Positions 61,369-64,000 of a DNA stretch of 64,000 nucleotides are shown piece after piece (position 1 is the stretch's first letter; each line of letters opens with the position of its first letter). Origin of the DNA: Planctomycetota bacterium (GTDB lineage Bacteria > Planctomycetota > UBA1135 > UBA2386); contig OZ245006.1 in the NCBI GenBank assembly GCA_965223545.1, positions 4,736,001-4,800,000 of the forward strand, given 5' to 3'. The position numbers and the translations under genes were made by a program. The notes beneath the pieces were generated by a model. That model was given only the letters and a program-made list of their open reading frames with translations, ran no database searches and had not been told where the DNA came from.

Positions 61369-62307
61369 CTATCTCTCGAAGCCGGCCCCGACCAAGCGCA
61401 CTTCGCGCAATCTGACGCCGGGGTAGCGGGACACGGTCACTGGAATCGGTCCAGGGTCGGAGCCGTCGGGAAACACCGCGGTCAGATCGAAGGGCGCGCT
61501 GCCCGGCAACGTGTCGGCGATGCGCACGAAGACCTGATCCCGGCGCACTTCGATCGCCACCGTGTCGCGGTGCTCGGCTGCGGCCAGCTCGGCGCGGCCG
61601 ACGTCGACGTGGGCCAAGAATCGCGTGGCCCCTTCGTTGCGGAGTGGTCCGGCCTGCAAGTTCCAGTGGATGCCGTTGACGTTCAGTGTTTCCGGCACCG
61701 AGGTGCTGAGTTCCGGCACGATCTCGAGTCCGCCGGTGGTGACGCGCAGAGTGAGCGTGTCGTCGATCGCGCCCCGGATCCGCAGAGCGTCGGGGATCCG
61801 CGGGGCGTCGTCCGCAAGGAGCGCACCACGGGCTGGCGGTGCGGCGTCGCCATCCGGCGCGGCCGCTCGTTCTTCGTCGCTGGGGGTGTACAGCGCCAGG
61901 GAGAAGTTGTCGGATCCGGCGGCCGGGTCGGCCAGTTGGAGCACGATCCGGCGCCCCGAGCGCGCGACCGTGACCAAGCCCCGCGCCTGGTACCACAAGC
62001 GCACGGGGCCGTCGAGCAGGCGCCGGGCGTCGATGCCCGCTGCGCGCAGAGACATTGAGGGAGACCGCTGCGGGTCCCAAGAGAGGCCGTTGATCGAGAC
62101 GGACTCCGCTGGCTTCCAGTGTCGGTGTTGCCAATGCACACCGCGCTCGTCGAGAACGATCCGGTCGCTGCCGTCGATCCTGGCGATGAGCCGGACGACG
62201 ACTTGCTCCGCGGCGGGTTCGAGCACCAGGGGATGATCCTGCGCTGCGGCGCCATCACCTCCGGCGAGTGCGAGCAGCAACCCTGCGGCGGATGCGAGTT
62301 TCTTCAT
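61369..62307 (-). CDS. Secreted protein with two tandem IDGSD-type beta domains
   Basis: Signal MKKLASAAGLLLALA; repeats RIDGSD.I.L...P.SV.INGL.W...D...GSD.F.L and AIDDT..L...P..L.VNGI.W...D...GS..F.L. Confidence 0.65.
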   Translation of the reverse strand: MKKLASAAGLLLALAGGDGAAAQDHPLVLEPAAEQVVVRLIARIDGSDRIVLDERGVHWQHRHWKPAESVSINGLSWDPQRSPSMSLRAAGIDARRLLDGPVRLWYQARGLVTVARSGRRIVLQLADPAAGSDNFSLALYTPSDEERAAAPDGDAAPPARGALLADDAPRIPDALRIRGAIDDTLTLRVTTGGLEIVPELSTSVPETLNVNGIHWNLQAGPLRNEGATRFLAHVDVGRAELAAAEHRDTVAIEVRRDQVFVRIADTLPGSAPFDLTAVFPDGSDPGPIPVTVSRYPGVRLREVRLVGAGFER

Positions 62308-62379
62308 CACGGCTTCTGGAAGTCGATGGTAGCGCCAACGCGGTTTGGCGCGGATTGCTCCCAGGATAGGCTGGCGCGC

Positions 62380-63804
62380 GTGCTGCGTGCAGGGCTGTTG
62401 CTGGCCGGGGCCGCGTTGATCCCGCTCGGATGTGCAGGGCTGGCCCCGTTGACGACGTTGGAGCGTCAGCGCCTGGCCGTGTTCGACGCCTACTGGGAAG
62501 CGCTCGACGCGCAGTACCCCCTGTTTGGCCGCCGCGGAGTGGCCTGGGACGAAGTGCGCGGCCAGTACCGCGCCGCGGTGCCGTTCGCCGAGCGTCCGGA
62601 CGACTTCTACCACCTGTTGGCCGGCATGCTCAGCGCAGCCGGGACCGCAACCAACGACCGAGCGCACCGCGACAGTAGCGGAGCCCGCGAATCCAGAGGT
62701 GCCGGACGACCGCGCTGAGCGCAGACGCCAGTGTTGCTTCTCTGCGTCCGGGAGTTGCGGTACGGAACTCGTGACGACAACCGGCCTTCGAAAGAGTTGT
62801 CGCCGCGCGAAGATTCTCGGCCCCGGACGCTCAGCGAGCTTCAAGATCTGCACGTCTCGCTGCACGTCCCGCGCGAGCGCTGGTCGACCGATGGCACCGA
62901 GCCGACGTCGGTCTTGGAGTGGCCGGAGTTCCGCATGTTGCCGATCGGTGGACGGCCGCACGTGGTCGATTGGCCAAAGGGACAAGAGCCGGAGCTACCA
63001 GAGGGCGTACGGCGCGAGCAGCGCTACCCGGAGATCGTCCGCGTGGCGGGGTTCCCGGTGGTGCTGTCGTTGATCGAAGTGCTGCTCACCGGTCGCGCCG
63101 GGAGTGCGGTCGAGCTCGAGTTGCGTTGGCGCAACGGCGCGATCTCACGCCACGTCGTGCGGCGTCCCGGTCGCTTCCACGGGTTGGAGGTCGCGACGCT
63201 GGCGGAGAACGTCTCGCTCGAAGCGCTCGACCAGCAGTTGGAAGCCGCCGGCGATGCGCCGGGTCTGGTCCTCGACCTGACTCGCAACCAAGGCGGTCAG
63301 CTCGACCTCACGGTTGCTTTGATTCGCCGATTCCTGCGCGACGACGTCGAGGTCGTGTTCGTGCCATCGGAGTCGATGTCGCTCTTCGGTGTGATCCCGG
63401 TGGACGCCTTCGTGCGCCAGACGTGGAGGCCTCGACCGCCGCGGCTGGCAGTGCCGGTCGCAGTGTTGACCAGCCGCCTCACCGGTAGCGGTGCCGAACA
63501 TCTCGCGCGGATGCTGCAGCGGCATGCCGGTGCCGTCGTCGTCGGCGAGCGGACAGCCGGAGCCGAGGCCGGCGTCGCCGAGATCGAGGGTGCCGATGGT
63601 TCCAGGCTGCGCTTCGGTGCGCTGCGCATCCTCGACAGCACCGGCCGCGGTCTGCAGGACGAAGGGGTCGTGCCCGATGTTCCCGTGCGCCTGACCCTGG
63701 ATGACGTCGAGCGGCTCGGGCCGGACGCGGCGGTCGAAGACTGGCGCAGCCGGCTGCTGGCGGCGGCGCAGCGGGCTCTCGAGGCGCGCGCCACGTCCCA
63801 CTAG
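62380..63804 (+). pseudogene. S41 family peptidase lipoprotein interrupted by a 201-bp insertion
   Basis: Lipobox IPLGC; F...W...D..YP.F...GV.W; DLTRNQGG, TGSGAE, VGERTAG, GVVPD. Removing the insertion gives AGMLSELQDLHVS. Confidence 0.85.
62628..62836. mobile_element. Small non-coding insertion (193 bp between 8-bp direct repeats GCTCAGCG)
   Basis: GCTCAGCG at 62628-35 and 62829-36; splits a conserved motif; carries an in-frame TGA; multiple stems. Confidence 0.72.
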
Positions 63805-63821
63805 GACCAGGAGCACCGCCC

Positions 63822-64000
63822 TCAGGGCTGCAGATCGACCTGCAGGGCCTGCGACGCACTGATTCCGAGGGGCGGGCAGGGCGGCGGCGTCTGCGGTCCC
63901 GCCCAGAAGAACTGCGCGAACAGCTGGGCGCCGATCAGGCCGGTGCGGTTGGGGAGGGGCAGTCCGACGTGCGCGGCGCCGACGGCATCACTCGTCGGTA
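63822..64000 (-). CDS. C-terminal fragment of a protein carrying the conserved C-terminal domain (runs off window)
   Basis: Hand translation PTSDAVGAAHVGLPLPNRTGLIGAQLFAQFFWAGPQTPPPCPPLGISASQALQVDLQP*. Confidence 0.7.
   Translation of the reverse strand, partial: PTSDAVGAAHVGLPLPNRTGLIGAQLFAQFFWAGPQTPPPCPPLGISASQALQVDLQP

Follow-up and report, generated by a model that had tools for sequence, protein, structure and literature searches.

A multicopy miniature element with a tetranucleotide core in a Planctomycetota genome and its probable parentage in a Rep_trans-like insertion sequence

IS91/ISCR elements and their short derivatives have no terminal inverted repeats (TIR), possess unequal ends and a tetranucleotide at both junctions, and probably use a single-strand rolling-circle route that leaves tandem and one-ended products (described in parts of a review, PMC5714925). 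The 201-bp repeat reported here resembles them in all of these respects, its route too being a probable one. The IS91 enzyme is an HUH protein of the Y2 type (PMC5714925), whereas the candidate enzyme here models as TBP-like, with its tyrosine in a strand, and the IS91-like elements present in these genomes have unrelated end sequences. The same review, in the sections concerned, ascribes rolling-circle transposition to HUH enzymes only.

Rep_trans initiators (PF02486; RepC/RepD, and RepSTK1, 4cij) have the TBP fold (PMC13107129). As described in parts of two sources (PMC5714925, PMC13107129), they and Rep-Arvir have a TBP-like fold, which the candidate enzyme may share, a D/D/E plus YxK/RxE layout like that of its sequence, and hairpin recognition, which we propose for it, and Rep-Arvir also has a MarR-like winged helix, as does our model. 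Those proteins start plasmid, phage, or conjugative replication (same parts of PMC5714925 and PMC13107129), whereas here the gene stands alone in multicopy chromosomal insertions of 1.7-1.8 kb. The candidate enzyme is also unlike both in having no Pfam, NCBIfam, or PDB sequence match.

Among short repeats, REP/BIME/REPIN sequences with their TnpA_REP enzymes are comparable in forming hundreds of intergenic palindromes and mosaic tandem arrays, in termini that supply stop codons, in being IS110 targets, and in a C|T-like junction (parts of PMC3333891, PMC8266576, and PMC3733652). The repeat is unlike them in being a directional unit of 140-200 bp with fixed ends and no conserved GTAG/CGTC tag, in having no linked RAYT in the genome under study (one adjacency was seen in a relative, G018), and in sharing its left-end motif and cores with an autonomous insertion sequence (IS). 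PATEs of the IS200/IS605 family are gene-less miniatures with terminal hairpins and a short target, and they insert with no duplication. The repeat is likewise gene-less, with terminal hairpins and a short target, but unlike for PATEs we found no Y1 element with these ends, and strand bias is absent. Mycobacterial MIRUs can be likened to it by description, with tetranucleotide repeats on both sides, overlap with gene ends, tandem copies, and open frames, but they measure 40-100 bp and have no known enzyme in the part of the source concerned (PMC3184786). Our literature search, which took in few subscription papers and no supplements, found no published description of the 201-bp repeat or of a transposase with a Rep_trans/TBP fold. 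Miniature non-autonomous elements are already known; one tied to a Rep_trans-like enzyme is undescribed in the literature searched.

An insertion in an S41 peptidase gene

The window, i.e. the whole 64,000-bp stretch that was analyzed, is C1:4736001-4800000 of the genome under study (G000), on a contig of 8.07 Mb with 70% GC; G-, L-, and P-numbers are working labels of genomes, metagenome loci, and proteins. An S41 peptidase gene lies on its + strand in two parts, both supported by homolog alignment. The 5' part (62380..62628) encodes a signal-like N terminus and a Tricorn C1 domain (PF14684, E 9.6e-8), and the 3' part (62834..63804), which is separated from the start by an internal TGA, encodes the PF03572 domain (E 2.9e-22). 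Between them is a miniature element of 201 bp plus one 4-bp core (62629..62833, + strand, subtype La1/Ra1), which differs from the nearest other copy at 22 of 205 positions. A sequence-only reading of the window had described an in-frame insertion bounded by an 8-bp direct repeat. This repeat is present, with GCTCAGCG at 62628 and again at 62829, i.e. with a spacing of 201 bp, but as a boundary of the element it was over-read: it is a 4-bp core, CTCA, with matching neighbours, a match of this length occurring in only 9 of 69 arrays, including the one in the window (counted from the array list).

Deleting one 201-bp unit in silico restores ...AGMLSELQDLH... in the S41 frame. In the alignment with homologs of the S41 protein (n=10, 425-454 aa), all of which lack the 67 codons of the insert, a 67-residue gap falls exactly at the insertion point in 10 of 10. 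As a check for mis-assembly, short-read contigs were used from three sequencing runs (two samples of one study, possibly the source of the assembly). They span the left junction with zero differences; at the right junction, two contigs have 26 letters and one has 29 letters inside the element, the threshold for a bridge being 31 letters. These contigs, which have a depth of ~400 and are blind to rare empty alleles, list no joint that skips the element. Because of the homolog gap, and of contigs that cross on the left and reach 26-29 letters in from the right with no element-skipping joint, we conclude that the insertion is real.

The features of the window copy all read on the + strand. The left core CTCA (62629..62632) is best fitted by a first C from the target and TCA from the element, whereas in the right core CTCA (62830..62833), where the host frame has a Leu-Ser codon pair and the opposite strand reads TGA, TCA is most likely target-derived. 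Next to the left core is the left-end motif CA-n-C-GCGGCC-nn-GGCCGC-AACC (62631..62652), which contains a 6-bp hairpin, has two mismatches in this copy, is common to autonomous elements, and is also the target of an IS110. The octamer CGCTGAGC is found at 62713-20, where it had been reported, and contains the sole in-frame TGA of the insert. It lies within the invariant internal complement of the left end, CCGCGCTGAGC (62710..62720), which closes the left stem and whose TGA stops the host frame. A second internal complement, ending in GCGTCCGG (62739..62751), pairs with the right end in the consensus fold. The right-end region (62796..62829) comprises the GCGCGAAGATTC arm, a spacer, and GGACG; of 11 autonomous elements that were tested, 5 have right ends that its profile resembles.

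Three stem pairs listed in the sequence-only reading are in place (62702-08/62745-51, 62644-51/62754-61, and 62775-81/62796-802), although the nested ACCGCAAC/GTTGCGGT stem of the window copy is unused in the consensus fold. In folding, the window copy does not exceed shuffled sequences (z -0.29 on the + strand and -1.46 on the - strand), whereas most other sampled copies do (z about -1 to -9). The Rfam search that had been suggested, run on 61500-64000, gave no match at E<=5. Most likely, the S41 gene is simply broken by the window copy. The S41 protein also lacks ~25 residues after an RRP motif (window ~63185-63200) that are present in all ten homologs, which may represent further decay of the broken gene.

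A repeat family with fixed ends and a 4-bp core

A search for other copies, using BLAST and a hidden Markov model (HMM), showed that the insert belongs to a multicopy repeat, so that the objection that it might stand alone falls. Full-length units number 124, and 186 hits score >=25 bits; they are spread over 135 loci and amount to 32 kb, or 0.4% of the DNA of the genome, with zero copies on contig C2. (This 39.6-kb contig has open frames that by our own reading are terminase-, portal-, prohead protease-, capsid-, and tape measure-like, and it is probably a phage.) The proposal of a non-autonomous mobile element is borne out, one with no transposase and no intron boundaries. We found no TIR either; the ends are not mutually complementary, each pairing with an internal site, and no multicopy IS of the genome shares them.

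Units are palindromic and mostly 195 or 201 bp long, and they are built from three left and four right half-unit subtypes in shuffled combinations. The 69 arrays with both outer ends comprise 49 single, 10 double, and 9 triple arrays and one with six units; the tandem arrays (20 of 69) are head-to-tail, and adjacent units share a single CTCA. When ends were defined by profiles excluding the core, outer-left cores read C94/T95/C97/A98% (n=84), outer-right cores C98/T91/C87/A87% (n=123), and inner junction cores 100% CTCA (n=50). Core decay is on opposite sides at the left and right ends, and the simplest fit would place a crossover within the core, close to C|TCA. The target consists of CTCA, the flanks being free, and not of the Tn10-like GCTNAGC that had been entertained. 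Although most unit lengths in this genome are multiples of three (195, 198, and 201), those of relatives vary (138-144 and 184-188), and we therefore claim no coding constraint.

Placement was assessed against our own hexamer-based gene calls (5,798 genes). Right-hand cores coincide with the TGA stop of an opposite-strand gene in 57 of 100 cases, compared with 5.3% of 29,185 CTCA sites (p 1e-45), and since right-hand cores lie on coding stops again in G018, the right TCA is most likely target-derived. Only 4 of 69 arrays lie inside genes, compared with 72% of CTCA sites (p 2e-31). These are the window copy, which brings an in-frame stop, the frameshifting arrays at C1:1697209 and C1:3722491, and the read-through array at C1:6633579. 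A stop occurs in the equivalent of the host frame in 99 of 103 units. In-gene insertions are thus purged, which argues against the RNA-level removal or gene switch that the sequence-only reading had proposed. No replichore bias was found in the genome (59 vs 64). The 195-bp unit at C1:6633579-6633777 keeps the reading frame open and adds 65 residues to the product of a gene that we take to be SnoaL-like, possibly as a tolerated peptide insertion.

Among 301 genomes of the order, eight besides G000 have the left motif in multiple copies, and all eight belong to the same family; looser patterns gave 92, 96, and 59 matches in G168, G089, and G018 (8, 7, and 19 with reversed controls). Most named carriers in the collection of genomes are Planctomycetota bins, and viral contigs yielded 13 motif matches, none resembling the element. 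Units of relatives are arranged in tandem and measure 138-144 or 184-188 bp; their cores are CCCA and their internal motif is TGGG, compared with an internal GGAG or GAAG in those metagenome variants that have CTCA cores. Inner junctions in G018 are CCCG/CCCA, right ends are CTCA in 9 of 20 and lie on coding stops in 7 of 20, and many copies differ between their cores (left CCCA, right CTCA), whereas some copies in G168 have an identical variant core left and right. We considered and rejected start-codon targeting in the CCCA lineages, where a coding frame opened at only 2 of 27 and 0 of 26 ends.

That the element carries an internal complement of its core, as first noticed in the window, holds for the family. 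The decisive check, whether this motif covaries with the target, was run and gave no per-copy covariation in G000. CGCTGAGC is kept in 96 of 103 units; among solo units (n=36, a set without the window copy, which scored below the end threshold), 35 have the same internal 8-mer while the rebuilt empty sites have 32 different values, with 3 matches. CGCTGAGC complements the left end of the element itself, and the family consensus fold has two long stems in which each terminus is paired with an internal complement. An alignment of G168 and G089 copies contains five compensatory pairs, representing few independent events, and its wobble pairs favour the minus strand (50 G-U vs 9 A-C cells, reversed on the plus strand). 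The guide idea stands between lineages, families with a CTCA core having a GAG-type internal complement and those with a CCCA core having TGGG, but fails per copy. In G018, the internal motif is of a non-GGG type in four copies, each of which matches its own right core (three GAG/CTC and one GCG/CGC, among 20 ends), and seven CTCA ends are listed with a GGG-type or unreadable internal motif. Because 6 of 7 autonomous left ends leave the core wholly unpaired (+ strand fold), the internal complement is peculiar to the miniatures and does not serve the whole family as a guide. It is a fixed stem partner, and at most a fixed DNA-level guide.

The repeat is itself a landing site for other elements. 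A 1.94-kb IS110 encoding 515 aa (C1:5593702-5595641, plus 10 identical copies) inserts after GCCGCAAC, and 10 of its 11 insertions are in or against the left motif of the repeat. Its 5' non-coding region contains GGCCGCAA and TTTGGTT, which fit the left and right target guides of a bridge RNA. Judging by its insertion sites and these guide-like sequences, this IS110 has the conserved end motif of a different transposon family as its target. A second element is IS110/IS1111-like, encodes 392 aa, and has short subterminal inverted repeats. Present at C1:614430-615907, 5085735-5087212, 6849567-6851044, and 7063803-7067773, it inserts at one internal site of the repeat, and one repeat array hosts both types. 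A third IS110 (461 aa, 23 copies, e.g. C1:2827668-2829388) targets a separate GTAC-tagged REP family, and a RAYT at C1:3914532 is flanked by two of its copies.

Beyond these genomes, many metagenome contigs of lower GC (L396, L399, L403, L429, L467, L481, L482, L494, L500, L507, L509, and L510) contain the 22-bp left motif amid iterated 7-9-bp repeats of the CACAGA, CACGGA, and GGGCTT types, apparently as short relics or as insertions into other repeats. Short iterated repeats are linked to GxxExxY cassettes. As a partner of our repeat, the GxxExxY nuclease was rejected: it is found in 8 of 91 genomes, and not in G000, G168, G089, or G018. In G350, from another family of the phylum, tandem units of ~100 bp (C60:19835-19960 and C210:12400-12523) begin with this left motif and have a CA/CACA junction in common.

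Autonomous elements and their candidate enzyme

When metagenomes were scanned for the left motif, 120 loci were retrieved, with many chance matches in genes and 40 loci only ~600 bp long. At 6 of the 120, the exact motif lies 100-167 bp upstream of an unannotated gene of ~510 aa in the same orientation, and at a seventh the right end of the gene is joined to the motif; none has the opposite orientation. In related genomes, this gene is the sole content of elements of 1686-1828 bp. Five such autonomous elements, found in four related genera and in a neighbouring family, have CTCA, CCTA/CTCA, or CCCA cores: in G023, six or more near-identical copies carry CCCA at each end, the G066 element has CTCA at both ends, those of G029 and G132 have CCCA, and the G299 element ends on a TGAG, like the miniatures. 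One autonomous element is inside an integrase frame, where the rebuilt empty site has a single CCCA. A 4-bp core at both ends with one core at the empty site is seen in the window copy as well as in autonomous elements. All autonomous left ends consist of a core, a short spacer, a GC hairpin, and AAC-like bases, and this core-hairpin-AAC arrangement is common to the miniatures, exactly in the metagenome loci and as a variant in related genomes. On the right, profiles of miniature ends scored 5 of 11 autonomous ends at p<=0.03 against shuffles, and 6 of 11 received no score from any profile.

The genome under study has no intact gene of this family. It has a broken copy at C1:1929133-1928040, with a stop, a frameshift, and a displaced C terminus, preceded ~190 bp upstream by a variant left motif with the stem GCGGGC, compared with GCGGCC in the miniatures. 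A profile built from 109 sequences hit only 9 of 91 family genomes, giving a fragment in G249 and no hit in the repeat-rich genomes G168, G089, G018, G035, G034, and G238 (62-94% complete). G023, the genome richest in gene copies, has zero matches to the miniature motif.

The protein family is large: of 8,000 scored, 7,829 are homologs of the 506-aa protein P0033, and clustering at 50% gave 7,795 representatives. A member encoded at L470 has no Pfam or NCBIfam match, weak HTH hits at E<=1 alone, and does not match the Rep_trans profile PF02486; a PDB sequence search with the candidate enzyme returned weak winged-helix hits alone, as did PHROGs. Its structure was predicted with a pLDDT of 92. 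When the whole 506-residue model was compared using VIA-align, residues 6-388 aligned to TBP (Z 8.6, rmsd 3.7, 177 aligned) and residues 391-506 to MarR-type winged helices (Z 8.8-9.0). Ranks 2-5 in Foldseek are the rolling-circle initiator 4cij, at the weak level of E 0.006-0.012 and TM 0.15-0.26; Foldseek gave no match at E<=0.001, and 4cij is absent among the 50 VIA-align matches. The Rep_trans motifs, in the order and with the definitions given in part of a review (PMC5714925), can be matched in the sequence: N' (D) to D20, I (xxD) to D251, III (YxK) to Y321/K323, and IV (RxE) to R329/E331. These residues, D20, D251, Y321, K323, R329, and E331, are kept in 104, 107, 108, 104, 109, and 109 of 109 sequences, respectively. 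The candidate enzyme thus models as a TBP-like catalytic domain with Rep_trans-type residues, followed by a C-terminal winged helix.

Origin, proposed mechanism, and meaning

The repeat is multicopy and has fixed ends, one 4-bp core per junction, and tandem arrays; its left-end hairpin motif and its cores are common to autonomous elements, and a broken copy of their gene is present in the same genome. We consider that the insert is probably a non-autonomous miniature of an unclassified Rep_trans-like rolling-circle IS, in parentage as well as in chemistry. Speaking against this reading are the lack of an intact gene in G000, the six repeat-rich relatives that are blank, the lack of the miniature motif in G023, the GCGGGC vs GCGGCC stem, the 6 of 11 right ends that went unscored, and the structural match, which is moderate overall and weak to 4cij.

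The first alternative is a REP/BIME/REPIN-type repeat spread by a RAYT, a Y1 HUH enzyme cutting at C|T, with the Rep-like IS having inserted into or captured the repeat. Copies are indeed intergenic and palindromic, with mosaic halves and tandem arrays, the junction fits C|T, the cut site of TnpA_REP (part of PMC8266576), IS110 elements target the repeat as they do REPs, and at one metagenome locus the motif flanks the ~510-aa gene on both sides. There are 14 Y1 genes in G000, but a distance of 6.5-70 kb separates its RAYTs from the nearest scored end, they have repeats of their own, and the RAYT profile is blank in the four g28 genomes, two of which have >90 motif matches. The G018 copy 2 bp upstream of a RAYT start also fits; that miniature (L107:1270-1459) precedes a RAYT-like gene with its own flanking repeats. 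The GTAG-type tag is not conserved, GTAG occurring in some G168 copies only. Moreover, the motif has a fixed place at the left end of the IS in six metagenome loci and five related genomes, and in G023 the mapped junctions of autonomous copies place it inside the element. We therefore regard this explanation as unlikely. A RAYT as partner was rejected on a family-wide profile, which hits 47 of 91 genomes in a manner unrelated to the occurrence of the repeat, and a 12-copy second Y1 family was ruled out by position and ends, in G000 only. This family consists of twelve Y1 genes of 94-100% identity (C1:2260091-2260789 plus 11 copies) in which the shared sequence ends at the stop codon; the region upstream is a mosaic repeat into which a group II intron has inserted many times (~14 copies, of which some occur in both orientations).

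Derivation from an IS91/ISCR or IS200/IS605 element, by HUH single-strand transposition, would account for the lack of inverted repeats, the tetranucleotide at both ends, and the hairpins near both ends; IS91-like Y2 genes exist in G000 and in 4 of 5 relatives tested, and a 21-bp match to the right end lies ~280 bp upstream of one Y2 pseudogene. It is nevertheless quite improbable: the conserved ends of the Y2 elements are different sequences, 25 Y2 loci lack the end motif beyond one isolated 10-mer, the replichore bias is absent (59 vs 64), and no Y1 element sharing the ends of the repeat was found when the PATE case was tested.

We see very little room for an ordinary DDE-type MITE with a 4-bp target duplication, or for an IS110-type donor. 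CTCA on both sides, and the same variant core left and right in some G168 copies, would suit a duplication, but there are no TIR, left and right cores differ in many G018 copies, no multicopy IS of G000 shares the ends, and both IS110 families insert inside the repeat. As a parent, IS110 was rejected, since both families insert within units of different subtypes. Other candidates fared no better: an integron integrase is absent from G000 at E<=1e-60 and found in 43 of 91 genomes overall, and recurrent neighbour genes in 366 flanks include no mobile enzyme apart from IS110 in G000.

Least credible of all is the model of the sequence-only reading, a structured RNA that guides targeting or its own removal from DNA or RNA as a gene switch, for although the precise in-frame position, the internal complement of the core, the lineage-level shift from TGAG/CTCA to TGGG/CCCA, and the four matching non-GGG copies in G018 are in its favour, it is opposed by the absent per-copy covariation in G000, the seven G018 CTCA ends with a GGG-type or unreadable motif, the strong depletion in genes (p 2e-31), the lack of an Rfam match at E<=5, the core wholly unpaired in 6 of 7 autonomous left ends, and the lack of an empty-site joint in contigs of depth ~400. 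A self-splicing intron or IStron was rejected on the lack of an Rfam group I/II core at E<=5 and the 4 of 69 arrays in genes.

For a miniature of a Rep_trans-like IS, the following route can be proposed. The enzyme, once supplied in trans, would bind the left-end hairpin, and its tyrosine would nick one strand inside the core. A single strand would then be copied or peeled out and closed to a circle, the junction of which would rebuild the core, and the circle would be joined to a chromosomal CTCA (TGAG) with no true target duplication. A comparable circle route, with an HUH enzyme, mobilises IS91 (part of PMC5714925). Arrays could arise from insertion into the element's own ends, from read-through, or from rolling amplification, the last of which has been proposed for BIMEs (part of PMC3333891). 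Selection would afterwards have retained copies at TGA stop codons and between genes. If the parent was lost after a burst, this would explain why the profile is blank in six relatives (the window copy being 22 changes from its nearest sister). No circle junction outside arrays and no empty allele was observed.

On balance, we lean towards the broader proposal that these elements represent an undescribed class of rolling-circle transposons that use a Rep_trans/TBP-fold tyrosine nickase and not an HUH or DDE enzyme, the repeats being miniatures mobilised in trans, the ~200-bp unit a complete substrate, and the target set by the element's own end. If this is true, the 4-base target (CTCA or CCCA, according to lineage) could be changed by editing the DNA end, and the 22-bp end motif in unrelated metagenome repeats would mark a large hidden family of miniatures. 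With at least 7,800 unannotated members, a protein family that resembles Rep_trans and is the only gene content of insertion-like elements would represent a new type of transposase chemistry. Since the cis ends, the target core, and a natural substrate of 140-200 bp are defined by the miniatures, the mechanism can be tested directly, and a candidate enzyme is offered for orphan directional repeats in bacteria. As a gene switch, the insert has no importance. For the organism, the repeat means a genome reshaped by a parasite, with 0.4% of its DNA taken up, copies parked on stop codons, and a landing site provided for two IS110 families.
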